From positions 62,001 through 84,410 of the forward strand of contig JBDOIF010000154.1 in assembly GCA_041082215.1 (NCBI GenBank): DNA of 22,410 bases, read 5' to 3'. Each line of letters opens with the position of its first letter. The stretch's first letter is position 1. The notes below the pieces were generated by a model. That model ran no database searches. It had not been told where the DNA came from and saw only the letters and a list, made by a program, of their open reading frames with translations. This document shows, piece by piece, positions 2,573 to 17,399 of this stretch. The stretch is from Anaerolineae bacterium. GTDB lineage: Bacteria > Chloroflexota > Anaerolineae > B4-G1 > DUEL01. The position numbers were made by a program, and so were the translations under genes.

Positions 2573-2601
2573 TTGACAGGCGCTCAAAAACATGCTATTT
2601 T
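2573..2601 (+). promoter_or_regulatory. Putative sigma70 promoter of the radical SAM operon
   Basis: TTGACA (2573-2578), 17 nt, TATTTT (2596-2601) with an extended -10 TGn. GAGGA RBS at 2636-2640 precedes GTG 2647. Confidence 0.7.
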
Positions 2602-2646: not shown

Positions 2647-3999
2647 GTGTTTCTGGTTCCTGTTGCCGACCGCTTCTTATTCTACGCGCCTCTCGACAGC
2701 CTGATCGTCCTGATTGATCGTACTGCAGCACGGCAACTTCGCCGGTATCTCGACTGCCGACAACCGGTTACTCAGGGACCCCTCCAGGAGATCGTCCAGG
2801 CCCTTGATCCCGCGCGTGAGCTTCCTTTGCCCCGGCAGGGTGATTTTGTCCCCTCGTTTCTGGGCCTGTTGCCCACCCGGGGATGCAACCTGGCCTGCCG
2901 CTACTGTGGCTTCGCTGTAGGGGAGGAGCCTCAGCAGAGGATGAGCCTGGAACTGGCCCGTGATGCGGTGAACTGGTACCTCGACACCGTCCAGCGTGCC
3001 GGCGGGAAGCACGCTGAAATCCATTTCTTTGGCGGTGAACCCTTCTACGCCCCTGAGGTGGTTGACTTTGCTGTCCATCTGGGCCGTACCCGTGCCCGTG
3101 AGGCTGGCCTCACTGTCCGCTTCGAGGTCGCCACCAACGGCGTTTTCGACGAGAGACGCTGCCGCTGGATCGCCGACAACCTGGACGCGGTCGTTCTCTC
3201 GCTGGATGGGCCGCCCGATGTTCAGGCGTTGCACCGACCCTACAGGGACGGCCGCAGCAGCGCCGAGGTGGTCGAGCGGACGGCGGAGATGCTCTCCGAG
3301 GGGCCGGCTGCTCTCTATCTACGTGCATGCGTGACCGACGCTACGGTCGAGCGCATGCCGGAGATCGCCGCCTGGTTCTGCGAGCGGTTTCGCCCCGCCG
3401 GTGTTTGCTTCGAACCCCTGCAACCGCCGACGCCGCCCGCCAGGGCGCCTTTCGAGCCGCCCGATCCGTGGGCGTTCGGGCGTGCCTTTGTCCTGGCCGC
3501 CCGCATCCTGGAGGCTCATGGCATCGAGGCAGTCTATGCTGCCGCCGACATCCATACCCGGCGGACCAGCTTCTGTCCGGTGGGCCAGGATACCGCCATC
3601 GTCTCGCCCGATGGCACGATCAGCGCCTGCTACCTCCTGCCGCGGGACTGGGAAATGCGGGGCCTCGACCTGCGCCTGGGGCGTATAGCCGGGGGGCAGG
3701 TCCATCTGGACAGGGCGGCCGTCGCCGCTGCCCGCGCGCTGAATGTGTACAACAAACCCCACTGCGCCCGCTGCTTTTGCCGCTGGCACTGCGCGGGCGG
3801 CTGCCACGTCAACCACGGGCCAACTGGCCCCAACGGCGCCTACGACCGGCTCTGTATCCAGACGCGACTGATCGCGCTGCGCAACCTGCTCCAGGCCCTT
3901 GACCAGGAGCCCCTGTTTGACGCATGGCTCCAGGACCCATCAGCGGTCAAACGGGCTATCCTTCAGCCCTCCGACCGGCTGCTCGACGTCGAGGTGTGA
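2647..3999 (+). CDS. Radical SAM/SPASM domain peptide or protein maturase (paralog 1)
   Basis: CNLACRYC, FFGGEP, ATNG and LSLDG motifs. SPASM cysteines FCPVG...ISACY...CARCFCRWHCAGGC...LC. Roughly 65-aa N-terminal extension that may be an RRE. Confidence 0.92.
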   Translation: MFLVPVADRFLFYAPLDSLIVLIDRTAARQLRRYLDCRQPVTQGPLQEIVQALDPARELPLPRQGDFVPSFLGLLPTRGCNLACRYCGFAVGEEPQQRMSLELARDAVNWYLDTVQRAGGKHAEIHFFGGEPFYAPEVVDFAVHLGRTRAREAGLTVRFEVATNGVFDERRCRWIADNLDAVVLSLDGPPDVQALHRPYRDGRSSAEVVERTAEMLSEGPAALYLRACVTDATVERMPEIAAWFCERFRPAGVCFEPLQPPTPPARAPFEPPDPWAFGRAFVLAARILEAHGIEAVYAAADIHTRRTSFCPVGQDTAIVSPDGTISACYLLPRDWEMRGLDLRLGRIAGGQVHLDRAAVAAARALNVYNKPHCARCFCRWHCAGGCHVNHGPTGPNGAYDRLCIQTRLIALRNLLQALDQEPLFDAWLQDPSAVKRAILQPSDRLLDVEV

Positions 4000-4001
4000 G
4001 G

Positions 4002-4268
4002 TTGACCAGATACCGCTGTGTTCCATCGCTTGTCTGGGTTCAGGACGCCGGGCGGGTCCTGCTGGTGGACCAGGAGACGCTTCAGGCATGGACCCTGGAA
4101 GGAGCCGAGGCCGCGGCCTGGGACCTTCTGGCGTTGGGTTACCCGGCAGAGCGGGTTGTTGCGATGCTGGCGTTGCTCCTCGACGTGCCCGCCGGGCAGG
4201 CCGCTTCCTTTCTCGAAGGGAGATTGGCCGCCTGGCTTGAGGTCGGCATGCTGCAAGAGGGGAAATAA
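4002..4268 (+). CDS. Stand-alone PqqD-like / RiPP recognition element (RRE) protein
   Basis: 88 aa from TTG 4002 (GAGGTG RBS; alternative GTG 3996). Three short beta strands (LVWVQD, RVLLVD, AWTL) followed by EGAEAAAWDLL and helices ending WLEVGML, which is the PqqD winged-helix pattern. Confidence 0.72.
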   Translation: MTRYRCVPSLVWVQDAGRVLLVDQETLQAWTLEGAEAAAWDLLALGYPAERVVAMLALLLDVPAGQAASFLEGRLAAWLEVGMLQEGK

Positions 4269-4273
4269 TCTGA

Positions 4274-5290
4274 ATGGCAAACCTCGTCATCAGCGCCATT
4301 TGTAACCGTACCTGTGCCTATTGCTTCACCCGCGACCATTACGAGGATAACGGCGGTGGGGCAGTGTTCCTCGATCTGGATGGCTTTGAGGCCCGGCTGG
4401 ATTTCCTGGACCGCTCCGGCATTGACCAGGCGCGCCTGATCGGCGGCGAGCCAACCCTGCACCCTGACTTCCCCCTCCTGGTCGAGCGGGCCAGGGCGCG
4501 GGGCAAGACGGTGATCGTTTTCTCCAACGGTTTGATGCCTGAACCGGCCCTGGCCTGCCTGGAGGCGCTGCCCGGCGACGCCTGCAGCGTGCTTGTCAAT
4601 GTCAATGCGCCAGAGGATATGGGGGCCAGTACCTTCCAGCAGTTGTGCGCCACGCTCCGCCGCCTGGGCCAAAAGGCTACGCCGGGTCTGAATATCTACC
4701 GCGTGGACCTGGAGCTGGCTTTTCTTCTCAACCTCGTCGGCGAGACGGGCTGTCGGCCTGTCATCCGCCTGGGCCTGGCCCATCCCTGCCTCTCCGGCAG
4801 CAACCGCTTCGTCCGGCCACACCAGTACGTTGCCATCGGCAGGCGGATTGTCCACTTTGCCCGTCGCGCCGCCGGGGCTGGCATCAGAGTCGAGTTCGAC
4901 TGCGGCTTCGTCCCGTGCATGTTCTCCCCGCCCGACCTGGAGGCCCTTCGGGCGCTGGGCGCCAGTGCAGCCTGGAAGTGCAACCCTATTCTGGACATTG
5001 ACCTGGAGGGACGGGCCATCTACTGTTTCCCCCTCTCCCGTCTGGGCTACCTGCCGCTCACTCCCCAGGCCAATGCGGAAAAGCTGCGGCGGTCTTTCGA
5101 GGCCCGCGTCCAGCCCTACCGTCGGGCCGGCGTCTTTGTCGAGTGCTCAACCTGCCCCCTCAAGCGATCCGGGGAATGCCCGGGAGGCTGTCTTTCTGCA
5201 ACGGTCCGCCGCTTCCGCCACACGCCTTTCTGCGTTACAATATCGGATCAGGAGCTACAGGGTGAGCACCTGGGTCATTCCTTACATTGA
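4274..5290 (+). CDS. Radical SAM protein with C-terminal SPASM-like Cys cluster and no N-terminal RRE
   Basis: CNRTCAYC right at the N-terminus, IGGEPTLHP, FSNG, then FDCGFVPC and KCNPILDIDLEGRAIYCF...CSTCPLKRSGECPGGC. Confidence 0.9.
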   Translation: MANLVISAICNRTCAYCFTRDHYEDNGGGAVFLDLDGFEARLDFLDRSGIDQARLIGGEPTLHPDFPLLVERARARGKTVIVFSNGLMPEPALACLEALPGDACSVLVNVNAPEDMGASTFQQLCATLRRLGQKATPGLNIYRVDLELAFLLNLVGETGCRPVIRLGLAHPCLSGSNRFVRPHQYVAIGRRIVHFARRAAGAGIRVEFDCGFVPCMFSPPDLEALRALGASAAWKCNPILDIDLEGRAIYCFPLSRLGYLPLTPQANAEKLRRSFEARVQPYRRAGVFVECSTCPLKRSGECPGGCLSATVRRFRHTPFCVTISDQELQGEHLGHSLH

Positions 5291-6197
5291 TCAGACCCCC
5301 GCTTTCTGGGAGGAACTGGCGGAGCAGTTTGGCGCGCATATTAAGGAAGTTTATTTCCCTCCGCCTGCCGGAGCCTTCGCCACCGGGCGCAGCCCTCAGC
5401 CAGCCGAGCACCTGGAACAGTTCCTGCGTTATGCCCCGCTGCCCAAAGCTGTGCTCCTCAACCCGATCGTCCTGCCACGGCCGGCCAGGGAAATCGCCCC
5501 CGCTGTGCTTGCCTTGCTGGGGCAGTTGTATGAGATGTACGGCGTCTCGAGCGTTACGGTAACCGATCCCACCCTGGCCTGTTGCATCCGCGAGGCATAT
5601 CCCCACTTTCGCATCGCTGCCTCCGTCCTGATGCGCATTGCCCGACCGGCGCAGTTGCTGGCGATTGAAGCCTGTGTGGACGCCATCACCCCCGATAACG
5701 CGCTGGTCCGTGACCTGGCGGGGCTGCGGCAACTCCGCGCCGCTTTTTCGGGCGAGATCCGTCTGCTGGTCAACGAGGCCTGCCTGCCAGGCTGCCTTTA
5801 CCGGACCCAGCACTTTTACGAGATGGGCTATGGTGACTTTTTCGCCCAATCGCTCTGTCAGCCACTGCTGAGGGCCCACCCGTGGCTGCGCCTGACAGGG
5901 GCCTGGATTCTGCCGCGCCATCTGGTCTACTACGACGGCCTCTACGACACCCTCAAGCTCGCCGGCCGGGTCACCCTGCAGGACCCCCGGCGGTATCTGA
6001 CTGTACTGGGCGCCTACATCCGCCGCGAGCCGATCCTGCCGTGCGAAATCGGCGGCGGGCCGGCCTCATTGCTGGAGCCCATTGATATACCCGACGAACT
6101 CTTTACCTACATTCTGCACTGCGACAAGAACTGCCACGATTGTTCAGTCTGTCGTGACTATTACGATCTCGCAACTGCCGGTGGAGGAAAGCCATGA
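5262..6197 (+). CDS. Peptidase U32 family Fe-S protein (putative O2-independent hydroxylase/oxidase)
   Basis: Start GTG 5262 after CAGGAG. U32-like features: VLLN, VTVTDP, ASV, EIRLLVNEACLPGCLYR..H...C, WILP and LKLAGR (compare KIEGR). Extra C-terminal CDKNCHDCSVC. Confidence 0.72.
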   Translation: MSTWVIPYIDQTPAFWEELAEQFGAHIKEVYFPPPAGAFATGRSPQPAEHLEQFLRYAPLPKAVLLNPIVLPRPAREIAPAVLALLGQLYEMYGVSSVTVTDPTLACCIREAYPHFRIAASVLMRIARPAQLLAIEACVDAITPDNALVRDLAGLRQLRAAFSGEIRLLVNEACLPGCLYRTQHFYEMGYGDFFAQSLCQPLLRAHPWLRLTGAWILPRHLVYYDGLYDTLKLAGRVTLQDPRRYLTVLGAYIRREPILPCEIGGGPASLLEPIDIPDELFTYILHCDKNCHDCSVCRDYYDLATAGGGKP

Positions 6198-7075
6198 AAG
6201 AGAAAGAGTTAGAAGAGGGACCACTGGAGCAAGCGGAGGCCGAACCCCAGGTCTATGCCGTCAACAAAGATGCAAACGGCGCATGGAAGTTCAGCCGGCG
6301 GGACTTTTTGGCCCTGGCCGGGGGGGCTGTGGCAGCCCTCGTCGCCGGAGCAACACCCGGCTGCACCGGCCGGCAAGCGCCTGCCTCTACGCCGACCAGT
6401 GCACCTCCCCCCACTTCAACCAGCACCCCCACGAACACTCCGACTCAGACTCCCGTCAAGACCCCAACGCCCTCTCCCACTCCATTAGAGAAGGCAACCC
6501 CCACCCTGACCCCCACGCCGCAGACCCCCAGCGCCGCGTTCGTCGCCGATGTCACGATCCCCGATGGTACGGTGATGATGCCGGGCCAGTCCTTCACCAA
6601 AACCTGGCGGCTGGTCAATAACGGCGAGGTCAACTGGGGCGAGGGGACCCAGCTGGTCTTTTCCAGCGGCACCCAGATGGGTGGGGAAAGCCCTGTCCCC
6701 GTCCCCGACACTGCGCCTGGCCAGACGGTTGACATCAGCGTGGATATGGTAGCTCCGACGACGGTGGGCGACTATACCGGCAACTGGACGCTGGTTGCCG
6801 GAGACGGCACCAGGATGATCACCATCTACGTCAAGATCGCTGTTCGGCTGCCCGGCCAGCCTGGCGAGGTGCCAGCCGGCGAGACCGGCATCAATATGAC
6901 AGGGCCGGGCGGCGAGGTACGCCATCTACCCTGTGGCTCGCCCATTCCACCCGGCTGGACCTGCGTCTGCAACTGTGTGACCGTGCCTGCGCCCTGCTCC
7001 TGCGACACCGTCTGCACCTGCGTCGGCTACACTACCTGCACCTGCGACACAATCCATTACTGGTATCCGAACTGA
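6194..7075 (+). CDS. Putative modification substrate 1: Tat signal (possible lipoprotein), Pro/Thr linker, NBR1-Ig-like domain, Cys-rich tail ending HYWYPN
   Basis: FSRRDFL plus hydrophobic stretch plus TPGC (Cys57). PT-rich linker. FVADVTIPDGT..PGQSFTKTWRLVNNG..W..APGQTVDISVDMVAP..G.Y.G.W matches NBR1-Ig-like domains. Ten Cys in the last 47 aa. Confidence 0.85.
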   Translation: MKEKELEEGPLEQAEAEPQVYAVNKDANGAWKFSRRDFLALAGGAVAALVAGATPGCTGRQAPASTPTSAPPPTSTSTPTNTPTQTPVKTPTPSPTPLEKATPTLTPTPQTPSAAFVADVTIPDGTVMMPGQSFTKTWRLVNNGEVNWGEGTQLVFSSGTQMGGESPVPVPDTAPGQTVDISVDMVAPTTVGDYTGNWTLVAGDGTRMITIYVKIAVRLPGQPGEVPAGETGINMTGPGGEVRHLPCGSPIPPGWTCVCNCVTVPAPCSCDTVCTCVGYTTCTCDTIHYWYPN

Positions 7076-7078
7076 CGG

Positions 7079-8425
7079 ATGGAACTCTACCTCATCCCGG
7101 TACAGGATAAGTTCATCATCTACCGCCCCCTGCTGCGGCTGGCTTTCGTCGGCAACCGGGCGATGGCCGAGCTGGCAGCCGGGCTGGCCAAACGGCCCGT
7201 TCTCTCCGGAGACGGCCTGCCGGAGGAGGTGCGTACCTTTCTCGACGCGGTGGGCTTCCTGCAACCCGACCCACCGCCGCCTCCGCCTCCACCGTCGCCC
7301 TATTGTCCCAGCACTGCCGTGCTGTTGATGACCAACCGCTGCAACCTGCGCTGTACCTACTGCTACGCCAGCGGAGGAGAGGGGCCTGTCCAGGACCTTC
7401 CTCTTGAGCTGGCTCAAGCGGCGATTGACCAGGTCTGTGCCAACGCCGTCGAACAGAAACTGCCCCGATTTGAGCTGACATTCCACGGTGGCGGGGAGCC
7501 GGTCCAGGTATGGGAAGTGCTGCAGGCTGCCACGGCCTACGCCCGCAACAAGGAGCTGCCCTGCCGTACCGCCATCGTCAGCAACGGCGTCTGGACCGAC
7601 CGGCAGCGTGAGTGGATCCTTGAGAACATTGATGAGCTGAGCATCTCGTTCGACGGCCGGCCCCAGACCCAGGATCGTCAGCGGCCCTTCGCTTCCGGGC
7701 GCGGCTCCTCCCGGGCCGTGATGCGCACGCTCCAGGCGATGGACAAAGCTGGCTTTTCCTATGGCATTCGTATGACCGCGACCGCTCCCTGGCTGGAGAA
7801 CCTGCCGGAGGATGTCCGGTTCATCTGCGAAGAGACCGCCTGCCCGGCGATGCAGGTCGAGCCGGCCTTCAACACGGTGCGCGGGGTCCACCAGGGGCCT
7901 ACGGAGGAGGAGGGGGCGGCCTTTGTCGAGGCTTTTCTGGTTGCCTTTGACATCGCCCTCAGCGCAGGACGGCGGCTGAGTTACTCCGCTGCTCGACCCT
8001 GGCTGCTCACCCAGGCGTTCTGTACCGCCCCCTACGCTGCCCTCGTCGTCAACGCTGCCGGGCGGCTGGTGAGCTGTTACGAAGTCACCAGTGAAACCCA
8101 TCCTCTGGCGGCGCTGTCAACCATTGGCCGCGTGGAGGATGGTCGGGTGGCGATTGACCACAGCGCCCACCGCGCTCTGGTTGACCACATTGAGGCCCAT
8201 CGCGCTACCTGCCGCGATTGCTTCTGCTACTGGCACTGTGCCGGCGACTGTTACACCCGTACCTACTATGCCCAGGCAAGCGCAGGCACAGGTGCCAACC
8301 CGCGCTGCCGGATCAACCGCGAGATCACGGCCGGCATGCTGCTGCGTTACATTATGGCGGGCGACGGCGTCTGGCGCGGGCAGGATATCTATGCGCAGGA
8401 AGCTCATCTGATCAAAACGTTCTAG
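7079..8425 (+). CDS. Radical SAM/SPASM domain peptide or protein maturase (paralog 2)
   Basis: CNLRCTYC, FHGGGEP, VSNG and ISFDG motifs. FCTAP...LVSCY...CRDCFCYWHCAGDC...RC. The N-terminal RRE-like region is joined by a poly-Pro linker. Confidence 0.92.
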   Translation: MELYLIPVQDKFIIYRPLLRLAFVGNRAMAELAAGLAKRPVLSGDGLPEEVRTFLDAVGFLQPDPPPPPPPPSPYCPSTAVLLMTNRCNLRCTYCYASGGEGPVQDLPLELAQAAIDQVCANAVEQKLPRFELTFHGGGEPVQVWEVLQAATAYARNKELPCRTAIVSNGVWTDRQREWILENIDELSISFDGRPQTQDRQRPFASGRGSSRAVMRTLQAMDKAGFSYGIRMTATAPWLENLPEDVRFICEETACPAMQVEPAFNTVRGVHQGPTEEEGAAFVEAFLVAFDIALSAGRRLSYSAARPWLLTQAFCTAPYAALVVNAAGRLVSCYEVTSETHPLAALSTIGRVEDGRVAIDHSAHRALVDHIEAHRATCRDCFCYWHCAGDCYTRTYYAQASAGTGANPRCRINREITAGMLLRYIMAGDGVWRGQDIYAQEAHLIKTF

Positions 8426-8449
8426 CCCCCCAGGCAAAGAGGAGGAGAG

Positions 8450-9436
8450 ATGGCAGAGGAGAAGTCACCCCTCGATCTTCCAGAGGAGCAACCCGACGAG
8501 GAGGCGCCCCAGGTCTACAGCATCAAGAAGGAGGGCGATGGATGGAAGTTCAGCCGCCGCGAATTCCTCATCGCCGCTGCCACCGCCGCGGCCACAGCGA
8601 CAGGCGCGGCGATGCACGCCCTTCGCCGCTCTCAGGACACAGCGGAGCCGGACGCGGAAAGCGCAGAACTGATCCATCTGGAAATGGCTATACCGGCTAT
8701 GATGCTCGTCAGCCCTGGCCAAACTTTTGTCCAGGTCTGGACATTTACTAACAGGAGCGATAAGAGCCGATGCCACGGAGCCAGGCTACGCCTCCTGGGT
8801 ATTGACGAGATGAAGGCCCCGGCTATGCTGGACATCCCCGAGATCGGCCCGGGCGAGACCGTTGAGGTTCCGGTCGAAATGACCGCGCCCGCGGGCAAGG
8901 ATGCCTACCGCGCTGCCTGGAGCCTGGAGGCAGACGAGGGCACGCCGCCTCTTGCCAGTGGCCCTTTTGTCGTGCTGTCAACCTGCATCGCCGAATCGCC
9001 TCACCCCTACCCGAATTCCTACAATAACACCTGGACGGTCACCAATCCCGACACCGAAGCCGAGCGCACCCGCGTCCATTTCTCGCAACTGGAAGTTGAA
9101 ACCAACTGGGACTATGTGTATCTCAAAGATGAGAGCGGACAGGTCCACCAGACCATCACCGGCTACTACTCTTCCGGCCTGTGGTCGGTCCCTATCCCCG
9201 GCCGCGTTGTCCAGGTCCAACTGACCTCGGATTCGACCGTTCAGGCCTGGGGCTTTTGTCTCGATCAGATCCAGACCATCCGTGGCATCTGCTACCTCCC
9301 CATCATCCGTCGCGAGCCCACGCCCACGCCCACGCGTACGCCCACACCAACGCCCACACCGTGTAAATGCTATGGGGTCTGCACCTGCAACCCGCACTGC
9401 ACCTGCGATCTGATCCACTACTGGTACCCGAACTGA
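8450..9436 (+). CDS. Putative modification substrate 2: Tat signal, NBR1-Ig-like domain, CUB-like domain, YLPII motif, PT linker, Cys-rich tail ending HYWYPN
   Basis: GAGGAGG RBS. FSRREFL plus Ala-rich h-region. PGQTFVQVWTFTN...IGPGETVEVPVEMTAP...Y.A.W is Ig-like. ESPHPYPNS..WT...VHFSQLEVETNWDYV...LTSDSTVQAWGF is CUB-like. Ends CKCYGVCTCNPHCTCDLIHYWYPN. Confidence 0.85.
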   Translation: MAEEKSPLDLPEEQPDEEAPQVYSIKKEGDGWKFSRREFLIAAATAAATATGAAMHALRRSQDTAEPDAESAELIHLEMAIPAMMLVSPGQTFVQVWTFTNRSDKSRCHGARLRLLGIDEMKAPAMLDIPEIGPGETVEVPVEMTAPAGKDAYRAAWSLEADEGTPPLASGPFVVLSTCIAESPHPYPNSYNNTWTVTNPDTEAERTRVHFSQLEVETNWDYVYLKDESGQVHQTITGYYSSGLWSVPIPGRVVQVQLTSDSTVQAWGFCLDQIQTIRGICYLPIIRREPTPTPTRTPTPTPTPCKCYGVCTCNPHCTCDLIHYWYPN

Positions 9437-10269
9437 TGAAAATCAGGAGCGACCTGGTCGTTATCTCCTGGTGGTCCAATTGCCTGGGCCTGGCCTCCCT
9501 GCACGCCCTGGCGGAGCATGCGCCGGGCCGGGAAATCTATGTCGTTCAGGTGGGCAAACCGGAGGAAAGCAAAGCGCGCTTTCGCGCCCATCTACCTCCC
9601 GGCATCCGGGAATTGCCTTACCCTCCCGATGGCTCCGGGGAGGACTGGCGTGTCCGTGAGGCTGTCGCCCGTGTCCTCCTGCGCGACCGGGCCGGGCTGT
9701 GGTTTATTGACCACGACCTGATCGTTCAGGAGGATTGTACGGCCTGGCTGGATGATATGGACCGCCGGCTGGGGCAAAGCGATGTCTGCCTCTGCCATCC
9801 CGCCCCTTTGCGCGGCCCCTCCATTACCAACCCGGCCTTCTGGCTCTCCCCGGTCCGCTTCCCGCCTGACCTGCCCAGCTTTGCCCGCGTGCCGTACCGT
9901 GAGGACCCCGTCGCCAGCCGGCCTTATGCGCTGCGCCAGTCAGCCGGCCTGATGATGCCGGGCAAGGATACCCTTGTCGTGGCGATGGAATTCCTGCGCG
10001 AGCGGGGCATGACCTGCGGCTTCCCCCTGAGCGTGCAGGATCAAACGCCCGATGGGCCACCTCCCTTCCCGCGGTTTGAACACCTGGGCGGCCTGTACAC
10101 GTTTACCGGAGAGGTGCGGGCGGAACAGCCCTTACCCTTGCGCGACTGGATGGTCCGTTGCGTCGAGCAGTTCTCCGCCTTCTATGCCGCCTGCCCGCCG
10201 GCCTGGATCCGGGATGAGGACCCCGTCCTCTTACAGCGGATTGAAGAATTCCGGCAGGCTCTGTTATGA
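9436..10269 (+). CDS. Hypothetical protein, possibly a GT-A-fold glycosyltransferase
   Basis: ATG 9436 overlaps the previous stop (TGATG). N-terminal beta-alpha-beta pattern (LVVISWWS...IYVVQVG) and hydrophobic strand plus DxD (LWFIDHD) at about residue 92, as in GT2-like enzymes. The CDS is well supported; the product is tentative. Confidence 0.6.
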   Translation: MKIRSDLVVISWWSNCLGLASLHALAEHAPGREIYVVQVGKPEESKARFRAHLPPGIRELPYPPDGSGEDWRVREAVARVLLRDRAGLWFIDHDLIVQEDCTAWLDDMDRRLGQSDVCLCHPAPLRGPSITNPAFWLSPVRFPPDLPSFARVPYREDPVASRPYALRQSAGLMMPGKDTLVVAMEFLRERGMTCGFPLSVQDQTPDGPPPFPRFEHLGGLYTFTGEVRAEQPLPLRDWMVRCVEQFSAFYAACPPAWIRDEDPVLLQRIEEFRQALL

Positions 10270-10730
10270 CTCCGTTGAAGAGGCGCGACAAACCTTCTTT
10301 TGACCGGGGGCGGCGGGCCTTTCTGCTCGCTATGTTGCAGGAACTGCCCGTCCTTCATGGTACGCTCAAGGGCGGACAGGGCTTCCGCCTGACCGACCTT
10401 TCTGCTCTGCCCGATCAGCAACTGGCCCGTATTCGCCCCATCGTCAACCCCGACTATGTCATCCTGGTCCAGGACGGCGCTGTCTGGGCCCGCTACCGGC
10501 ACAGGCAGGAGCCGCCCATTCGCCTCTTTGGGACGGACGAGGAGGAAAAGCAGCGGACGTTCAACCTGTTCGATGGCCGACATACCCTGGGTGAGATCGG
10601 CTCACAGCTTGCCCAGGCCCTGGGCGAGGACGAGGCCACGGCCTTTTCCCGCGCCAGGGACCTCTTCCTGGACCTCGTCCGCCATATGGTCTGCGTCCCG
10701 CGGGACCCCCTGGGCCCGCCGGAGGGGTAG
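10266..10730 (+). CDS. Hypothetical protein with C-terminal PqqD/RRE-like winged helix and N-terminal RRxFL motif
   Basis: ATGA overlap with the previous gene. FNLFDGRHTLGEIGSQLAQALG...ARDLFLDLVRHMVC matches the PqqD-type DGxxTxxEI...F+xxLxxxG+ pattern. Confidence 0.65.
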   Translation: MTPLKRRDKPSFDRGRRAFLLAMLQELPVLHGTLKGGQGFRLTDLSALPDQQLARIRPIVNPDYVILVQDGAVWARYRHRQEPPIRLFGTDEEEKQRTFNLFDGRHTLGEIGSQLAQALGEDEATAFSRARDLFLDLVRHMVCVPRDPLGPPEG

Positions 10731-12080
10731 ATGGCCGACCAGGGCATGCACTTCCGGGCTGTGCGTGCAGGGGGGATGCCGATCCAGCGCCGGGACGGTC
10801 CGGCGTACGCCCTCTTTTATGCCCCTGGCTATGTTTGCGTGGTTGATCGAGCGGAAGCCGACCGTTTCGCAGAGCAGATCGGCCCCACCGCCCCTGCCCC
10901 CGAGGCAAGGGAGCTGTGGCAGCGTGCCGAGGCCGCCGTCGTCGCTGCGCAGCGGCAACAGGAGGAGCCTTTCCGCCCTGAATGCCTGACGCTCTACCTG
11001 AACAACGAGTGCGCCCTGCACTGCCGCTACTGCTATGCTACCCCATCCGCTGGTCCGGCTACACGTCTGGGGGAAGAGGCCATCGTGGCGGCGGCCGAAC
11101 TGGTTGCGGCGAACTGCCGCCAGAAGGGGTTGCCCCTCCACGTTGTCTTTCACGGCGGCGGCGAGCCGACCCTTCACCTGGAGCGTGTGGAATCGGTCCT
11201 GGCTCGCCTCGAGGCGGTCGCCACGCGCCACGGAGTGGGTCAGTTCCGCTACATTGCCACCGGCGGTGTCCTGTCGGAGCGGGCGGCCGTCTGGCTGGCT
11301 CGCCGTTTCGACCTGATCGGCCTCTCCTGCGACGGTCCGCCCGAAATCCAGAACGCCCAGCGGCCCCGGCACGACGGCCGTGGCACAGCGCACATCGTCG
11401 AGCGGACGGCCCGCATCCTCCACGCCGAGGGCCGCCGCTTCCACGTCCGGGCGACGATCACGGCACAGACGCTGCACCGTCAGGCCGAGATCGCCGCCTA
11501 CCTCTGTCAGGAGCTCCGCCCGGCGGCGATCCACTTTGAGCCGGCCTATCGCGGCGGACGGGCCGCCGAACTCGAACCCGACCAGGCCGCCAGCTTCGTG
11601 GCGCACTTCCTGGAGGCCCAGAAGCTGGCGCAGGGTTATGGCGTCCCCCTCTCCTTTTCAGGCAGCCGCCCTGGCGAAGTGCACGGTCCCTACTGCCACG
11701 TCTTTCGTCAGGTGCTCAACCTGGTTCCTGGCGGCGTGGCGACCGCCTGCTTTAAGATCACCCGGGCCGAAGATGCACGGGAACGGGGCCTGGCGATCGG
11801 TGCCTGGAGGGAAAACGGTTGCTTTGACCTGGACATCGCCCGCGTGGACGGATTGCGCCAGCGCCTCGGTATGCTTCCCGGCGCTTGCGCTGAGTGCTTC
11901 AATCGCTACCACTGTGCCCGGGCCTGTCCGGACCATTGCCCGCTGGACAGTCCGGCCGGGGGGATTGAGGGCTTTCGCTGCCGCGTGCAGCGCTGGCTGA
12001 CCGAGGCGGTCATAGAAAGGACTGCCCGGCGTCTTTGGGCTGAGAGAGGCCAGCGGAGGATCTATGCAGGCTCGCTTTGA
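10731..12080 (+). CDS. Radical SAM/SPASM domain peptide or protein maturase (paralog 3)
   Basis: CALHCRYC, FHGGGEPT and LSCDG motifs. YCHVF...ATACF...CAECFNRYHCARACPDHC...RC. The start may be ATG 10746. Confidence 0.9.
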   Translation: MADQGMHFRAVRAGGMPIQRRDGPAYALFYAPGYVCVVDRAEADRFAEQIGPTAPAPEARELWQRAEAAVVAAQRQQEEPFRPECLTLYLNNECALHCRYCYATPSAGPATRLGEEAIVAAAELVAANCRQKGLPLHVVFHGGGEPTLHLERVESVLARLEAVATRHGVGQFRYIATGGVLSERAAVWLARRFDLIGLSCDGPPEIQNAQRPRHDGRGTAHIVERTARILHAEGRRFHVRATITAQTLHRQAEIAAYLCQELRPAAIHFEPAYRGGRAAELEPDQAASFVAHFLEAQKLAQGYGVPLSFSGSRPGEVHGPYCHVFRQVLNLVPGGVATACFKITRAEDARERGLAIGAWRENGCFDLDIARVDGLRQRLGMLPGACAECFNRYHCARACPDHCPLDSPAGGIEGFRCRVQRWLTEAVIERTARRLWAERGQRRIYAGSL

Positions 12081-13407
12081 GCTTTTCTTCCGCGATGCCC
12101 CGGCGGAAGTTGACCCTGCGGCGATCAAGCGCGAATGGGCCTCCCTCACACCCGATTATCCGATCGAGGCGCGACACCTGCCCCTGCCTGTTTGGGCCCG
12201 CCGCGGCCTGACCGACGACGGCCCCCGGGCCTGGTCCACCTTGAGCCAGGATGTCCGCAGCATGGACGAAAAGCGCGCCTTCTGCATCTATGTTCACATC
12301 CCCTTCTGCTCCAGCCGCTGCGCCTTTTGTGATTGCTACGCCTTCCCCCTGCGGCGGCTGCGCGAGCAGCATATCGAGGGCTACATTGACCTGCTGATCC
12401 AGGAGGCTCAACTGTGGAGCCGCCTGGGCACCCTTGCCCGGCGGCCTGTCTCCACGGTGCATCTTGGCGGTGGCACGCCCACCTTCATCCGGCCGGCCGC
12501 ACTGCGCCGCCTGGTGCAGGCTTTGCAGGCACGCTTTGCCTGTGGGCCGGAGACGGAGTGGGCGCTGGAATCTTCCTCCAGCGAGCTGGATGAGGAGATG
12601 CTCGATGCCCTCGACGAGCTGGGCTTTACCCGGCTCCACGTTGGTGTGCAGAGCCTGGAGGACAACGTGCGCCGGACCATCGGACGGCGCGAGCAAGCAG
12701 CAGAGGTGCTGACCAGAATCGAACGGGCGGTGGCCCGTGGCTGGATTGTCAGTGTGGACCTGATCGTCGGCCTGCCAGGGCAGACGCTGACCGGCGCGCT
12801 GGCGGATGTGTGTGCCCTGGAGGCCGTCGGCGTGGATGGCTTTTCCGTTTATGAACTCCAGCTCTCTTCACGCAACCGACGCTTTGCCGAGGCCCACGGG
12901 CTGCTGGAGCGAGATCGCCTGGAGAACTACTGGCTGCTTCAGGCCGTCTCCCGCCTTCTCATCGCGCGGGGCTATAAGAAGACCCTCTTCAATCACTTCG
13001 CCCGCCACCGCGATACCAACCTCTATTTCACCTTTCCAGAACGGGGGGAGGATTGCCTGGCCCTGGGGACCATCGCCGATGGGGTCTGGGGCGATTACCA
13101 TTACCGCCACCCCGAGTATGCGGACTACTGCCGCAGCGTCAGCCCGTCTTTCCCCGGCCTGCAGGGGGGGATGCGCCGCACGCCGCTGGAGAGCCGTCTG
13201 TTCCGGCTGGAGACGGCCCTTCTCTCGGCCCGCTTCGAACAGGCTCTGTTCAGCGAGGTCCTGGGCGACGAGCGTGCCGGGCAGTTGTTCAGGCGCTGGC
13301 AGGATGCGGCGCTGATCGCTCAGGACCCGTCAACCGGCCGTTTTCACCTCACCGGCAACGGCTCCTGGTTCGTCGCCCAGATGATGGCTGAGCTGGCATT
13401 CCTGTAA
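12064..13407 (+). CDS. HemN-like (class C / HutW-ChuW-like) radical SAM enzyme, putative methyltransferase
   Basis: [35 protein letters not shown] and [11 protein letters not shown] are coproporphyrinogen III oxidase family motifs, followed by a C-terminal LTGNG helix region. Confidence 0.88.
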
Positions 13408-13836
13408 ATAGTCCAGCAGCGCCACAAGGCCGAGCAGGTAGCTGCGCCAGCCGAAACCGCCGATAAAGCCCACACAGACCGGTGCGATCAGCGAGCGACG
13501 GCGGAACGGCTCGCGGGCGTAGATGTTGCTGAGGTGTACCTCCACAGTGGGCAGCCCCACCGCGGCGATGGCATCGCGCAGGGCCACGCTGGTATGGGCA
13601 TAGCCGCCCGGGTTGATCAGCACGCCGTCGGCCCAGCCCATCGCCTGGTGCAATATGTCAATGAGCGCCCCCTCCCCATTGGCCTGGAGTATCCGCAGCA
13701 CAGCGCCTCGCTCTGCCGCCAGCGACTGCAGCGCCGTATTGATCTCCGCCAGCGTCACCCGCCCATAGACCTGCGGCTCTCGCTGCCCCAGCAGGTTGAG
13801 ATTGGGCCCATGGAGAACAAGAATCTTGCAATGCAT
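13330..13836 (-). CDS. aroQ: Type II 3-dehydroquinate dehydratase
   Basis: [38 protein letters not shown] and [17 protein letters not shown]. Start is coupled to the aroE stop (TGATG). Confidence 0.96.
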
Positions 13837-14714
13837 CAAACCTCCCCCAACACCTCGACGCAGGCGGCGCGCATCGCCGCGATGGGGGCCGGCTCACCGG
13901 TCCACATCTCGAAAGCGATGGCCCCCTGCTGGACCAGCATCTCCAGCCCGTCCATAGCGCGCGCCCCCGATGCCCTCGCCTGCTCCAGAAGCCGGGTCCG
14001 GCGCGGGTTATAGACCAGGTCGAAGACAACCAGATGGGAAGGGAGCGCCAGGCCGTCCGGCCAGATCGAGGCGCTTGCCTGGGGCCAGGTACCGACAGGG
14101 GTGGCGTTCACCAGCAGCGTGGCCCGGCCAGCCGCTTCGATCAGCGCCCCCGGCGTGAGCGGCAGAGCGACGAGGCGAGTTGCCTGTCTTCCCTGCCCCG
14201 CCAGGTCGGCGATGAGCTGCTCTGCCCGTTCCGGGGTGCGGTTGAGGACGGTGATTGCTTCGGCCCCTCCCCGGAGCAGGCCGGAGACCACCGCCCGCGC
14301 TGCACCACCTGCCCCAACGACAAGGGCGCGACAGCCCCCGGTACGCACGCCGCCTTGATGCAGCGCGCGGATAAAGCCGCTCTCGTCGGTGTTACAGCCG
14401 TAGATGCTTGCTTTCTCCCCCTTCCGGTGGACGATCAGGGTGTTCACCGCGCCGAGGGCGCAGGCTCCGGGATCAACACGATCGAGGAAAGGGAGAATGG
14501 ACCGCTTGTACGGCGCGGTCACGTTAGCCCCACGAAACCCCAGCGCAACCAGCCCGTGTACTGCCGCTTCGAGCCGGTCCGGCGGCACCGGCAGCGGGAC
14601 ATAGCACCAGTTCAGCCCCGTCGCGGCGAAGGCGGCGTTCAGCATAGCCGGGGAGAGACTGTGGGCCGTGGGCCAGCCGATCAGCCCTACCAGTTGCGTC
14701 TGTCCGTCAACCAC
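13836..14714 (-). CDS. aroE: Shikimate dehydrogenase
   Basis: [50 protein letters not shown] and GLEMLVQQG. Confidence 0.96.
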
Positions 14715-15801
14715 CCTTCTCCCCCTGCTGCGGTTCGTTCAGGAAAGGGGCCAGCGAGGCCATCAGCGCCTGAAACTGGGCCAGGTCAATCTGCTGAGCG
14801 GCGTCGGATAGGGCCTGGAGGGGGTTGGGGTGGACCTCGACCATGATCCCGTCGGCGCCAGCGCCGAGGGCCGCGCGGGCCAGGGGGATGATGATGTCCC
14901 TGCGGCCAGCGGAATGGCTGACATCAACGATGACCGGCAGGTGGCTTTCCTGCTTGAGCACCGCCACCGCCGAGATATCGAGCGTGTTGCGCGTCCAATG
15001 TTCAAAGGTACGGATGCCCCGTTCGCAGAGGATGACCTCCTCGTTCCCCTCCGCCATTACGTATTCAGCGGCATAGAGCAGCTCTTCGATGGTGGCCATA
15101 AAGCCGCGCTTGAGCAGCACCGGCTTCCCGGCGGCGGCGACTGCCCGCAGCAGCACCGGATTGTGCATGTTGCGAGCGCCAATCTGAAGGATATCGGCGT
15201 AAGCTGCGACCAGCTCCACATCGCCCGCATCGAGCACCTCACTGACCGCGGGCATTCCTTCGGCGGCGGCGACCTCTTTCAGGTAGCGCAGCCCCTCCTC
15301 GCCGAGGCCCTGAAAACTGTGCGGCGAAGTGCGTGGCTTGAAGGCGCCGCCCCGCAGCACGGCAGCGCCATAACGATGGGCCTCCCGCGCCACAGTCGCC
15401 AACTGCTCGCGGCTCTCTATGGCACAGGGGCCGGCGATCACCACCGGCCGTCCCCCGCCGATGCGCACCCCCTTGACCTCGATCACCGTTGCTGTGGAGC
15501 GCTCGCCCCGCCAGGCCAGCAGATGCCGCCGGGTCTGGCGCTCCTGCAGGAGCTGGGAGGCGCGGAAGATTTGCTCAAAGATCAGGCGGATGGATTCGCC
15601 GGAATAGGGGCCTGGGTTAGCCGCTACGAGTTCCTGCAGCACAGCCTCCTCGCGCTGGGGGTCATAGGTCTCCAGCCCCAGCCTGGCTTTTAGAGCACCG
15701 ACCTGTTCGACCAGAACGCCGCGTCTGGCCAGCAGGTCCAGAATCTGACGATTGATCTCATCAATACGATGCCTTAATTCCTCCAGATCATCCTCTGTCA
15801 T
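14707..15801 (-). CDS. aroF: Bifunctional chorismate mutase / DAHP synthase (type I-beta, Bacillus-like architecture)
   Basis: Start ATG 15801 (ATGA overlap). N-terminal LEELRHRIDEINRQILDLLARR...K...YDPQRE is a chorismate mutase II domain, followed by IAGPCAIES, GGAFKPRTSP, QIGARNM, LCERGIRTFE and EVHPNP..ALSD. Confidence 0.93.
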   Translation of the reverse strand: MTEDDLEELRHRIDEINRQILDLLARRGVLVEQVGALKARLGLETYDPQREEAVLQELVAANPGPYSGESIRLIFEQIFRASQLLQERQTRRHLLAWRGERSTATVIEVKGVRIGGGRPVVIAGPCAIESREQLATVAREAHRYGAAVLRGGAFKPRTSPHSFQGLGEEGLRYLKEVAAAEGMPAVSEVLDAGDVELVAAYADILQIGARNMHNPVLLRAVAAAGKPVLLKRGFMATIEELLYAAEYVMAEGNEEVILCERGIRTFEHWTRNTLDISAVAVLKQESHLPVIVDVSHSAGRRDIIIPLARAALGAGADGIMVEVHPNPLQALSDAAQQIDLAQFQALMASLAPFLNEPQQGEKGG

Positions 15802-17399
15802 TGCTCCATTCCCTTTAGCACGGACAGGACGACGGAAGGCGGCACGTGTTCGACCACCTCGACTTCGCCCAGGGCGCGGGGGAGCGCCCACCGCAAGGTC
15901 AGGCCCTTTCGTTTCTTGTCGTGGGACATTGCTTCCCAGACAGCAGCGGCGGTGTAGGGGGAAAGCCGCACCGGCAACCCCCACGCTGCGAGGACGGCCT
16001 CGATGCGCCCGGCAAGCGAAGGGTCGGCCAGGCCCAGCTCGACCGCGATCCGTGCGGCGGCGACCATCCCGATACTCACGGCCTCTCCGTGGCGGAGGGT
16101 GAAGGCGCTCAACTTTTCCAGCGCGTGTCCCACCGTGTGGCCCAGGTTGAGCACGGCCCGGCGGCCCTGCTCAAAGGGGTCTGCCTCAACGATCAGGATT
16201 TTCACCCGCAGCGCCTGGGCGATGGGCAGGCTTTGTATGGCCCGGAGGGGCTCGCCGGCTGCCGCCTCCAGTTCGGCAAAAAGCTCCGGAGCGCCGACGA
16301 CGCCGTGTTTGATCATCTCAGCAAGGCCGGAGCGGACCTGTTCGGGGGGCAGGGTCCGGAGCACAGTGGGATCAATGAGTACCAGCACAGGATGGTGGAA
16401 CGCGCCGGCCAGGTTTTTGCCCTGGCGCAGGTTGACGCCTGTCTTGCCACCCACGCTGGCATCTATCATCGCCAGCAGCGTCGTGGGAAGCTGGGCGAAG
16501 CGGACCCCGCGCATAAAAGTCGCTGCGGCAAACCCCGCCACATCGCCGGTCACGCCGCCGCCCAGCGAGAGCACCACATCGCTGCGGCTCAGCCCTCCGG
16601 CCAGGAACTGATCGTAGAGCGAAACGACGGTGTCCAGCGTCTTGTGCGCCTCTCCGTCGGGGATGGTGCAGGGGAAGGGATGGAAACCTGCTGCACGCAG
16701 CCCTTCTTCGACCTGAGCACTGTAGAGCGGCGCGACGATGGGGTTGGAGACGATGGCGACCCGGCCCCCCTCACCGCCGAGCGCAGCCTGCAAGGCTCCG
16801 CCCACGTAGGGCAGCAATCCGTCGCCGACGTGGACGTCATAGTAACCGCCCGGCATCTTCACCGGCAGGGTGATGGTTCGGCCCAGTTCGATCACTCGCC
16901 GGGCAACCTCCTCAGGCGGGAGATGAGTTGTATCCACATGCCAGGGGATAGACGCATATGCTGCACGGCGCATTGCCAGCAGCCGCTCGATCTCAGCGAG
17001 GGGGTCGTCTTTCGGGAGCAGGGGCCTGAGGGGGTTGCCGGGCATCTGGAGCCGCCGCAGGATTTCGTCTGGGGCACAGTCCAGGCAGATCACCGTGCCC
17101 ATTTCCATCATCCGCGTCCGGCTGGCAGGGTCTATTAACGTCCCGCCGCCGGTTGCGATCACCAGCCCCTCGTCGGCTGCCCTGCGCGTAAGTTCCGCAC
17201 ACAGCGCCTTCTCTGTCTCTCGGAAAGCGGCCTCACCGTCCTCGGCGAAGATGCGCGGGATCGGTTTCCCCATCCGCCGTTCGATCTCGGCGTCCATATC
17301 CACGAACGGGCGGCCCAGACGCCGGGCGACTTCCTGCCCGACGCTGGTCTTTCCCGTGCCCATGAAACCTGTCAGGATGATCGGATTTACCGTGCGCAC
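15798..17399 (-). CDS. aroB: Shikimate kinase / 3-dehydroquinate synthase fusion (AroK-AroB)
   Basis: N-terminal LTGFMGTGKT...FVDMD...GEAAFR...ATGGG is AroK. C-terminal GEAHK, LGGGVTGD, PTTLLAMIDASVGGKTG, LNLGHTVGHA, HGEAV and DKK are AroB. Confidence 0.95.
   Translation of the reverse strand: MRTVNPIILTGFMGTGKTSVGQEVARRLGRPFVDMDAEIERRMGKPIPRIFAEDGEAAFRETEKALCAELTRRAADEGLVIATGGGTLIDPASRTRMMEMGTVICLDCAPDEILRRLQMPGNPLRPLLPKDDPLAEIERLLAMRRAAYASIPWHVDTTHLPPEEVARRVIELGRTITLPVKMPGGYYDVHVGDGLLPYVGGALQAALGGEGGRVAIVSNPIVAPLYSAQVEEGLRAAGFHPFPCTIPDGEAHKTLDTVVSLYDQFLAGGLSRSDVVLSLGGGVTGDVAGFAAATFMRGVRFAQLPTTLLAMIDASVGGKTGVNLRQGKNLAGAFHHPVLVLIDPTVLRTLPPEQVRSGLAEMIKHGVVGAPELFAELEAAAGEPLRAIQSLPIAQALRVKILIVEADPFEQGRRAVLNLGHTVGHALEKLSAFTLRHGEAVSIGMVAAARIAVELGLADPSLAGRIEAVLAAWGLPVRLSPYTAAAVWEAMSHDKKRKGLTLRWALPRALGEVEVVEHVPPSVVLSVLKGMEQ

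Follow-up and report, generated by a model that had tools for sequence, protein, structure and literature searches.

An eleven-gene, five-radical-SAM cluster predicted to modify the Cys-rich C-terminal tails of exported proteins

The 22,410-nt stretch of an Anaerolineae bacterium genome analysed here (contig JBDOIF010000154.1, forward-strand positions 62,001 to 84,410; referred to as the window and numbered from its first letter) contains a compact gene cluster whose enzymes, judged from comparative genomics, would modify the Cys-rich C-terminal tails of two proteins predicted to be exported. In the open reading frame (ORF) list of the window, eleven co-directional ORFs, g1 to g11, are packed on the plus strand within 2647–13407; adjacent genes either overlap by 1–29 nt or lie no more than 24 nt apart, with the widest gap between g6 and g7. 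An earlier note, made from the sequence alone, had described the same eleven genes with the same tight spacing, and both agree with what we find. From its inventory, four SPASM-type radical S-adenosylmethionine (radical-SAM) enzymes (g1, g3, g6 and g10), one radical-SAM enzyme of HemN type (g11), two substrates (g5 and g7) and one PqqD-like protein (g2) hold up. A protein with a DxD motif does so as well: g8 is modelled with a GT-A fold and carries an invariant D92-H93-D94. The U32 protein (g4) and the second PqqD-like protein (g9) of that inventory are represented by weak matches only. Coordinates are collected in Table 1, in which RRE denotes a recognition element of the kind that serves peptides made by ribosomes and modified after translation (RiPPs).

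The two proposed substrates share an acidic N-terminus, a leader of the form PQVY[AS][VI].K...G.WKFSRR[DE]FL, an Ala/Gly-rich h-region and a tail that closes with ...CTCD.IHYWYPN, a comparison that confirms the earlier description of two ~300-aa proteins with matching leaders and tails. HYWYPN followed by a stop codon occurs exactly twice in the 3.53-Mb genome, in g5 and g7, and the reversed-pattern control gives no occurrence. In the alignment of the g5 family (A1), R35 and R36 are invariant, and P18, V20, V23, G29, W31, F33 and F38 are at least 90% conserved. The g5 leader scores 19.2 bits against the twin-arginine model TIGR01409 (cut-off 16.7), and the genome encodes TatC (215 bits); g5 is thus predicted to have a twin-arginine signal peptide, and its product to be exported by twin-arginine translocation (Tat). 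In an AlphaFold2 (AF2) model of g5, with a mean pLDDT (predicted score in the local distance difference test) of 70.7, the Ig domain is confident and residues 221–260, which include the LPCGSPIP motif, lie at 74–82; the strands of a leader hairpin (22–25 and 31–34) are of low confidence, and tail residues 262–293 fall below 50. No NCBIfam precursor family was matched, and the substrates, 293 and 328 aa long, contrast with the ~45-aa, six-Cys peptide of SCIFF systems. The CUB domain of g7 (8993–9259; PF00431, 23.2 bits, cut-off 21.4) is of a type better known from animal extracellular proteins.

Table 1. Genes and features of the cluster in window coordinates.
Feature	Positions	Strand	Basis or remark
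Sigma-70-like promoter match, upstream of g1	2573..2601	+	TTGACA-17-TATTTT with TG; 10/12; consensus match only
g1, radical SAM/SPASM, 450 aa, ~75-aa N-terminal extension	2647..3999	+	Radical_SAM 59.8 bits; PapB best NCBIfam
g2, predicted stand-alone PqqD-like RRE, ~91 aa	3993..4268	+	Start uncertain: GTG 3993 or ATG 3924
g3, short radical SAM, 338 aa, no N-terminal domain	4274..5290	+	CX3CX2C at residues 10-17; SPASM-like C-terminal Cys
g4, distant U32-like protein, accessory	5262..6197	+	PF01136 16.7 bits vs cut-off 22.4
g5, predicted substrate A, 293 aa	6194..7075	+	Leader, PT-rich linker, NBR1-Ig domain, Cys-rich tail
g5 leader motif PQVYAV..(hairpin)..WKFSRRDFL	6245..6310	+	Includes twin arginine R35 R36
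g5 Cys57, end of signal h-region	6362..6364	+	Lipobox-like, atypical TPG-C
g5 NBR1-type Ig-like passenger	6554..6844	+	PF16158 93.3 bits; AF2 pLDDT 88-97
g5 tail module LPCGSPIPPGWTCVCNCV + CxC units + HYWYPN	6914..7072	+	Tail alignments
g6, radical SAM/SPASM, 448 aa	7079..8425	+	Paralogue common to single-enzyme loci; CteB-like
g7, predicted substrate B, 328 aa	8450..9436	+	Same leader, NBR1-Ig, CUB, PT linker, tail without PCGSPIP motif
g7 tail TPCKCYGVCTCNPHCTCDLIHYWYPN	9356..9433	+	Comparison with g5
g8, GT-A-fold, glycosyltransferase-like, accessory	9436..10269	+	AF2 pLDDT 85.2; Foldseek; invariant D92-H93-D94
g9, 154-aa protein, weakly PqqD-like C-terminal half	10266..10730	+	Profile; invariant N-terminal R-R-x-F
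g10, radical SAM/SPASM, 449 aa	10731..12080	+	Radical_SAM; NCBIfam; conserved Cys; own clade
g11, HemN-fold (class-C-like) radical SAM, 447 aa	12064..13407	+	TIGR04107 below cut-off; HemN, NocN structures

The tail is shared far beyond these two proteins. Among the best 120 homologues of g5, 60 end in [HC]YW[YH]P[CN]. Searched against 1.84 billion sequences, a profile built from 75 tails matches at least 643 representatives of clusters at 50% identity with E <= 1e-3, of which 168 reach E <= 1e-10. An end of the form YW[YHF]P. is present, nearly always at the extreme C-terminus, in 130 of the 147 new proteins among the matches listed (HYWYPN in 63, HYWHPN in 44). Three elements make up the tail. 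The first, (T)LPCGSPIPxG[AW]xCxCNCV, has C7, G8, P12, C17, C19, N20, C21 and V22 invariant across the 75 tails, and is missing from precursors of the g7 type. The second consists of 0 to 7 units of C-[ST]-C-[V/D/N/Q/E]-x-x, with 214 units in 79 tails; Cys at positions 1 and 3 follows from the construction of the search pattern, position 2 is Ser or Thr in 189 of the 214, and consecutive units are spaced by 6 residues in 59 cases and by 8 in 42. The third is (H)YW[YH]P[N/C/T/D/S], within which Y49, W50 and P52 are invariant in the 75 tails. Some proteins contain the LPCGSPIP...CxCNCV element twice or more (P0122, P0160, P0238, P0247, P0242 and L007:8752-9277), the 2829-aa P0242 having 17 matched stretches; the element therefore behaves like a unit that can be repeated and is not confined to the C-terminus.

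A locus scan restricted to one genome per species returned 72 loci. By record title most belong to Chloroflexota, and the others are labelled Acidobacteriota, Actinomycetota, Nitrospira, Desulfobacterota, Pirellulaceae (Planctomycetota), Gammaproteobacteria and Bacteroidales, together with metagenome-assembled genomes (MAGs) labelled Verrucomicrobiota; the cultured Flexilinea flocculi TC1 (L044) is also among the 72. An ORF ending in YW.P. is present in 64 of the 72. When orthologues of g1, g3, g6, g10 and g11 are counted as core enzymes, 59 of these 64 tail loci have at least one, 53 at least three and 25 all five; for the 32 tail loci flanked by 7 kb or more on each side, the latter two counts are 29 and 21. 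The earlier note had proposed the co-occurrence of HYWYPN tails with this enzyme set as a check on its reading, and the check comes out in favour, both overall (53 of 64 with at least three core radical-SAM genes) and with full flanks (29 of 32). In all three exceptions the enzymes lie at another place of the genome concerned. L004 has g1–g4 and a precursor; L051, some 240 kb away on the same 5.2-Mb contig, has g6, g8, g9, g10, g11 and another precursor. These half-clusters suggest two functional modules able to work in trans. L040 and L055 come from one genome, which has its g6, g1-like, g10-like and g11 genes on a different contig. Loci of different phyla repeat the order g1-g2-g3-(g4)-precursor(s)-g6-(g8)-g9-g10-g11. 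Of the 40 relatives of this organism that were searched, 1 has an orthologue of g11; of the 24 within the same family, none does. Rarity among its own relatives together with spread across phyla suggests that the system is a mobile accessory cluster.

Other genes near these loci were also grouped. The largest accessory ORF cluster (47 loci) was considered as a conserved extra gene and rejected; it is held together by WD40 similarity and mixes precursor passengers with unrelated WD40 proteins. Two neighbours are specific to particular lineages: an 812-aa protein with DUF805 and FGE-sulfatase domains is encoded in 8 loci, mostly labelled Flexilinea (L020:960-3398 and 7 others), and a PMT_2-type membrane glycosyltransferase in 4 (L064:11253-13274 and 3 others).

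Ahead of the tail, precursors of every phylum sampled share a leader of the form P-x-V-[YF]-A-[VIL], a spacer of some 5 residues, G-W, x-x-[ST]-R-R-x-[FLW]. Pfam TAT_signal (PF10518) was run on eight proteins, of which seven are precursors; it matched those from L044 (27.7) and L019 (26.0), both above the cut-off of 22.7. Precursor size ranges from about 170 to over 1200 aa, and the passengers between leader and tail are varied: NBR1-Ig, LysM and SH3_3 domains in the Chloroflexota matches, WD40 propellers in 6 of the 7 other precursors scanned, and CUB in g7. Well-folded binding domains of such diversity (NBR1-Ig, CUB, WD40, LysM, SH3), kept together with the tail, count against a classical RiPP, for which leader and passenger would form an oversized leader or carrier and the ~30–50-residue tail would be cut off, once modified or exported, to work as a small peptide on its own, such as an antimicrobial or a metallophore. 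Of the 147 new tail proteins among the matches listed, just 11 are shorter than 135 aa, and most of these resemble fragments of larger proteins. The conserved accessory clusters that were scanned, 6 of the top 14 plus the representative of the largest, include no peptidase or ABC (ATP-binding cassette) exporter; nor does any such family match one of the eleven window proteins in Pfam or NCBIfam, as the earlier note had stated. A classical RiPP would nonetheless fit a C-terminal core behind a conserved recognition-like motif, RiPP-type enzymes with RREs, up to seven tandem precursor genes in one locus (L056), much as in RiPP precursor arrays, and the absence of a confident fold for the tail in the AF2 model. 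Taking both sides together, we consider release of a small peptide unlikely.

All five radical-SAM enzymes of the window, g1, g3, g6, g10 and g11, match the Pfam Radical_SAM family. Orthologue alignments reveal 3 + 8 conserved Cys residues in g1 and g3, 3 + 7 in g6 and 3 + 8 or more in g10; a CX3CX2C motif with 7–8 further conserved Cys, as in these four proteins, is the SPASM pattern, and g11 has CX3CX2C only. Among curated families, g1, g6 and g10 come closest to maturases of the PapB (ranthipeptide), SCIFF, nif11 and QhpD types, all scoring far below their cut-offs. PapB (NF047865, cut-off 340) gives 112, 102.8 and 67.9 bits for g1, g6 and g10, respectively, and these three also have the PapB-type combination of CX3CX2C and a SPASM region with ~7 further Cys. 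The window enzymes score 111, 88 and 49 bits against the SCIFF maturase (TIGR03974, cut-off 425), 84.5, 81.6 and 57.7 bits against QhpD (TIGR03906, cut-off 453), and 39.8, 47.3 and 29 bits against CrpC (TIGR04463, cut-off 525); QhpD is one of the top four NCBIfam matches of both g1 and g6, and for g10 it ranks third. SynChlorMet (ScmE/F), GeoRSP and His-Xaa-Ser maturases were set aside as weak NCBIfam matches (15–58 bits against cut-offs of 370–400). Apart from TIGR01409 on the g5 signal, no curated NCBIfam family reached its cut-off for any protein, those of loci with a single radical-SAM enzyme included. The solved structure nearest to g6 is CteB (5wgg, E 2.8e-16). In a tree of 140 sequences, the g1, g6 and g10 types form separate clades (46/46 with support 1.0, 57/57 with 0.996 and 37/37 with 0.85). 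In relatives, the alignments with maturase models of the nif11, QhpD and geopeptide types reach the N-terminal region, from which we infer that enzymes of the g1, g6 and g10 types may carry a fused RRE.

Beside the core genes of seven loci (L003:13788-15104, L005, L012, L013, L029, L034 and L051) lies a sixth radical-SAM gene encoding ~394–438 aa (Radical_SAM 54.9 bits; best NCBIfam match PqqE, 35.6 bits against a cut-off of 381). Its orthologue was not found in the genome studied here, where the best match scores 25.7 bits.

The HemN-fold enzyme g11 stands apart. It belongs to the HemN superfamily (HemN 1olt, E 4.7e-29; NocN 9p2u, E 4.3e-22), and its residues 41–444 align with positions 11–414 of the 419-position ChuW/HutW model TIGR04107 at 210.7 bits, which, against a cut-off of 400, does not make it an equivalog. 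g11 resembles the class-C methyltransferases NocN and ChuW/HutW, the latter over nearly its full length; unlike theirs, its genomic partner is a His-containing protein tail and not haem or a thiopeptide.

From natural variation in the tails, enzymes can be roughly matched to parts of the tail. In six loci (L061, L062, L069, L070, L072 and L074) the tails have the PCG...CNCV and CxC parts and no YWYPN end, and the sole radical-SAM enzyme of these single-enzyme loci falls inside the g6 clade of the tree. In the five single-enzyme genomes searched (all but that of L069), g3 was not found (best 31 bits), and matches to g1 are at paralogue level only (121–181 bits). Tails lacking YWYPN thus accompany an enzyme of the g6 clade only, and the g6 type may accordingly be linked, roughly, with the PCG...CNCV/CxC part, and the YWYPN end with g1, g3 and g10. 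Precursors of this single-enzyme subtype (L061, L069, L070, L072 and L074) have a twin-arginine signal with a different conserved n-region, P.FEL.RV..DGS.E..EIVP.T.LP.D..MGRR.FLGAG; thus each subtype would appear to have its own leader motif ahead of RR.

The pairing of a g6-type SPASM enzyme with a purely Cys-rich tail in single-enzyme loci points to the Cys region as the target, and the nearest solved relative of g6 forms thioethers. Both observations tell against the idea that the tail is a metallothionein-like Cys module whose thiols stay free for extracellular metal, the radical-SAM enzymes instead performing, for instance, nothing but aromatic cyclophane linkage (C-C/C-O), methylation or epimerization at YWYPN. 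We give that idea a small chance. The CxC units (214 in 79 tails) do resemble metal-binding motifs, the cyclophane maturases AmcB, YhhB, GrrM, FxsB and DynA are among the weak NCBIfam matches, the invariant residues of the end are aromatic residues and Pro (Y49, W50 and P52), and, in the available text of their report, the authors of the Crp study likewise suspect metal binding for CrpA (PMC13692751). The two possibilities are not exclusive, for cross-linked tails could still bind metal.

The His residue six positions from the C-terminus tracks with g11. A g11 orthologue is present at 42 of the 56 loci whose tails have His at −6, and at none of the 9 with Ser, Thr or Ile there; all 14 His-type loci without it are contig-cut, split or orphan loci. 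Where at least 7 kb is available on both sides, g11 occurs in 26 of 29 His loci against 0 of 3 non-His loci (Fisher p = 0.004, to be taken as indicative only, since the test overstates the independence of related genomes). Genome-wide searches found a g11 orthologue in 5 of 5 His genomes (378–540 bits, 43–57% identity) and in 0 of 5 non-His genomes (best 119 bits); tails ending in [ST]YWYPN are accompanied by the other SPASM enzymes and lack the HemN-like enzyme (0/5 genomes). Non-His loci are scattered over the g1, g6 and g10 trees, so the pattern does not trace to one inherited event. These results indicate a correlation between HemN-fold g11 proteins and His at −6. The 119-bit match lies in the genome of L046 (labelled Nitrospira, with SYWYPN tails; G005:C57:199461-200039), covers the C-terminal half only and has one TGA in frame; this may be what remains of a g11 since lost.

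Such shifts of enzyme content with specific tail residues, the tight co-occurrence of tail and enzymes across phyla and the presence of RRE proteins make it very improbable that the enzymes act on some other substrate, a cofactor or small molecule, with the tail proteins as co-regulated neighbours, receptors or scaffolds. The best match of g11, at 210.7 bits, is to the haem-degrading methyltransferase family ChuW/HutW, which would suit such a substrate, and U32 proteins and HemN relatives do occur in cofactor pathways; all ChuW- and HemN-type scores, however, remain under the curated cut-offs.

The remaining genes encode candidate recognition and tailoring proteins. A profile of 24 g2 orthologues matches the RREs of lasso-peptide systems, TfuB1 (6jx3_B, E 5.6e-8) and TbiB1 (5v1u, E 5.9e-7), and 9 of the 24 orthologues match PF05402; g2 can be regarded, on this profile similarity, as a homologue of PqqD-type recognition elements. 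In every locus with a detected g2, g3 follows it, and g9 precedes g10 in most loci with a detected g9. Prediction of a complex between the leader (A1 residues 1–60) and g2 (alignment A2) scored 0.00 in two runs without controls and speaks neither for nor against binding. In residues ~10–25, g9 orthologues share F...RRxFFxxL..E, with the first Arg invariant and the second nearly so; this R-R-x-F motif resembles the twin-arginine motif of the precursors, with no hydrophobic h-region after it.

For g4 the start is best placed at GTG 5262 behind AGGAG, where the N-terminus MSTWVIPYIDQ agrees with the orthologues. Weak U32 matches occur in 12 of 18 orthologues (best E 4.4e-4), an atlas match is a lead only, and seven Cys residues are invariant in the orthologue alignment. 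Foldseek relates g8 to TarP, 3cgx, glycogenin and LgtC with probability 1.0 and E values of 1.4e-5 to 8e-5, with template modelling (TM) scores of only 0.3–0.44; Pfam matched none of 9 g8 orthologues. Profiles of the g4 and g8 orthologues searched against PDB sequences returned nothing meaningful. From the model, g8 is predicted to adopt a GT-A fold with an acidic motif of the D-x-D type, and its role as a glycosyltransferase is putative.

In the reading that we favour, and hold to be reasonably probable, cross-linking and tailoring of the tail would take place in the cytoplasm, after which Tat would export the intact protein. g5 and g7 would be made with a long leader in which P-x-V-Y-A-V, a turn and G-W-x-F directly precede the twin-arginine signal. 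While still cytoplasmic, the tail, which AF2 models with low confidence, would be processed by the four SPASM-type radical-SAM enzymes. Enzymes of the g6 type would act on the PCG...CNCV/CxC part, most likely forming Cys thioether cross-links of the sactionine or ranthionine type, and g1, g3 and g10 would be needed for the YWYPN end. g11 may act on, or depend on, the His six residues from the C-terminus, where the analogy to class-C radical-SAM methyltransferases, whose chemistry provides the precedent, would imply C-methylation or a methylene-type link. g2, and probably g9, would serve as PqqD-like recognition proteins that present the substrate; the most plausible partner of g2 is g3, because g3 has no N-terminal domain of its own. 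The U32-like g4, from a family that includes oxygen-independent hydroxylases, and the GT-A-fold g8 would be optional tailoring enzymes. The finished protein would leave through Tat, with a general signal peptidase removing the signal, a route that would explain how the cluster does without a peptidase or exporter of its own; a lipid anchor on g5 through Cys57 is possible. The data show which genes are present, that they are conserved and co-occur, and that enzymes correlate with motifs; that g5 and g7 are the substrates, the chemistry and sequence of the steps, export through Tat and retention of the tail are matters that we infer, the last because the clusters scanned contain no conserved peptidase or exporter and the folded passengers are conserved. 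The proposal of the earlier note, exported proteins with a cross-linked C-terminal module, thus gains support from comparative genomics, in that the enzyme set co-occurs and varies with the tail.

Several observations weigh against this reading. Only distant homology speaks for thioether formation: the best families score 68–112 bits against cut-offs of 340–519. In the N-terminal ~80–90 residues of g1, g6 and g10 there is no relevant Pfam match to an RRE family, and the window copy of g2 has no Pfam match. The PqqD-like character of g9 is marginal (profile match to PqqD 3g2b at E 0.033; PF05402 matched by 5 of 32 members, the lowest E value being 0.0053), and the window protein scores 12.9 bits for PF05402 against a cut-off of 23.4. 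As to export, g7 has the motif SRREFL, yet no curated signal model reaches its cut-off. The lipobox consensus is [LVI][ASTVI][GAS]C; Cys57 is at least 90% conserved in A1, whereas T-P-G-C57 is atypical at position −3 and the residue is absent from g7 and many relatives. The accessory genes are not core, g4 occurring in 18 and g8 in 10 of the 72 loci. As this genome lacks the sixth radical-SAM gene, the product made here may not be the one made by the nearest relatives. Gaps in MAGs could conceal genes and so affect the g11–His correlation, which draws on related genomes. Finally, a metatranscriptome-library run yields contigs of 180–316 nt, with 0–2 differences, over parts of g1, g3, g4, g6, g8 and g10/g11; such short RNA-library contigs could be DNA carry-over and are a weak hint of transcription at most, and operon stretches that lack them are not taken to be silent.

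The favoured reading can be carried further, to a model that we offer as speculation and would not bet on. The tail would be a portable, protein-borne RiPP tag whose maturation is coupled to Tat quality control. Tat proofreading chaperones are known to hold their substrates in the cytoplasm; by analogy, the PqqD-like proteins would read the n-region hairpin and hold the substrate while up to six radical-SAM enzymes build a thioether-caged module. QhpC contains a thioether-caged tryptophylquinone, and the (H)YWYP end might likewise become a methylated or cross-linked aromatic centre, a protein-derived redox or metal cofactor formed without oxygen that could be attached to any exported passenger (Ig, CUB, WD40, LysM or SH3).

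Among known systems, the ranthipeptide and SCIFF maturases (PapB; ScfB/CteB, 5wgg/5why) provide the best curated families and the nearest structure for g1, g6 and g10. PapB and ScfB/CteB form Cys thioethers on Cys-rich cores in precursors that are peptides of ~45 aa; here the substrates have 170 to more than 1200 aa, the enzymes are a paralogous set, and HemN-like, U32-like and GT-A proteins accompany them. QhpD makes several Cys thioethers in QhpC, part of an exported protein that also has a modified Trp. QhpC is a small separate subunit, whereas the tail described here is fused to varied passenger domains, and no qhpA/B/C-like context was seen in the window.

The closest published concept is that of the Crp system, in which, according to the available text, CrpC cross-links the 28.8-kDa CrpA through ranthionines in its Cys-rich C-terminal region, and CrpA and CrpB share their N-terminal 47 residues (PMC13692751). 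Both systems have a SPASM enzyme with an RRE, a protein-sized substrate with a repetitive Cys-rich C-terminus, and two substrates with a common leader-like N-terminus; in both there is no obvious protease or exporter (PMC13692751). The window has this arrangement of a shared leader, a Cys-rich repetitive C-terminus and an adjacent RRE-bearing SPASM enzyme. The differences are that Crp is archaeal and has one enzyme where there are five here, that its repeats are of 17 and 34 residues with C-X-X-Q/D in place of C-x-C hexads, and that the text available describes neither a twin-arginine leader nor an aromatic C-terminal motif for it (PMC13692751). SPASM cross-linking of a Cys-rich region in a protein-sized substrate is, to that extent, an already published principle (PMC13692751).

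The export logic is closer to that of signal-peptide RiPPs. In the available text on DAG-RiPPs, a C-terminal motif is modified in the cytoplasm on precursors with a general-secretion or lipoprotein signal, some larger than 30 kDa, so that, as proposed here, a general signal peptidase replaces a dedicated leader protease; the enzymes there are MNIOs (oxidative enzymes that depend on multinuclear non-haem iron) and not radical-SAM proteins, and that text contains no mention of Tat or twin-arginine signals (PMC13056109). The leader described here, a twin-arginine signal with an extended conserved n-region, differs from those of both DAG-RiPPs and bufferins. Bufferins are reportedly signal-peptide RiPPs that MNIOs modify before processing in the general secretion pathway. 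The system therefore appears, as far as family models can tell, to resemble ranthipeptide, SCIFF, QhpD and Crp thioether maturation and, in its export logic, signal-peptide RiPPs, and to be a member of none of these, because its scores stay below the defining cut-offs of the families tested. We found no paper on the HYWYPN motif or on this combination of genes in the searchable literature, which excludes subscription journals and preprint supplements. With no curated enzyme family at its cut-off and no matching paper in that literature, the statement in the earlier note that it did not recognise this gene combination as a characterised class is borne out.

Around the cluster, a 250-nt region of lower G+C upstream of g1 contains the sigma-70-like match TTGACA-17-TATTTT. 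The single promoter that had been claimed is thus recovered at 2573–2601 as a consensus match and nothing firmer, the scan giving 4 sites in the region, including a weaker plus-strand site at 8802, against 1.7 +/- 1.3 in shuffled sequences. The genes on both flanks have no relation to the cluster. Upstream lie divergently transcribed genes for a TPR protein and an MBL-fold protein. On the other side, a complete shikimate/chorismate operon on the minus strand (13330–19859) converges on the cluster, with hrcA-grpE beyond it; it comprises aroQ, aroE, a DAHP synthase–chorismate mutase fusion, an aroK–aroB fusion, aroC and aroA. U32-type hydroxylases are said to use prephenate, which makes the position of this operon next to a g4-bearing cluster curious; the adjacency is probably due to chance. 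A nearly intact locus is present in hot-spring metagenomes from two studies, one of which may have supplied this DNA, with one 19.6-kb contig spanning 2527–13600 at 26 differences; sequencing runs with small word shares (X7–X11) were left out of any claim on habitat. One RNA-library contig contains a 7.4-kb joint (3995 to 11422, with a side of 21 letters), considered as a deletion form and rejected as most likely a chimaera of radical-SAM paralogues.

Should the favoured reading be correct, RiPP-type radical-SAM chemistry would extend at scale from small peptides to whole exported proteins. Having five or six radical-SAM enzymes directed at one tail of ~50 residues, the pathway would be among the most enzyme-rich RiPP-like pathways known and, as far as literature searches show, the first such pathway with a twin-arginine leader. 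The loci form a natural deletion series (g6 only; then g1, g3 and g10 in addition, with YWYPN; then g11 as well, with His at −6) that would yield testable assignments of enzymes to residues, and Flexilinea flocculi TC1, as a cultured carrier, would make proteomics of the native proteins possible. The system would then be a widespread and as yet unnamed one; its tail family extends over at least 643 clusters at 50% identity and many phyla.

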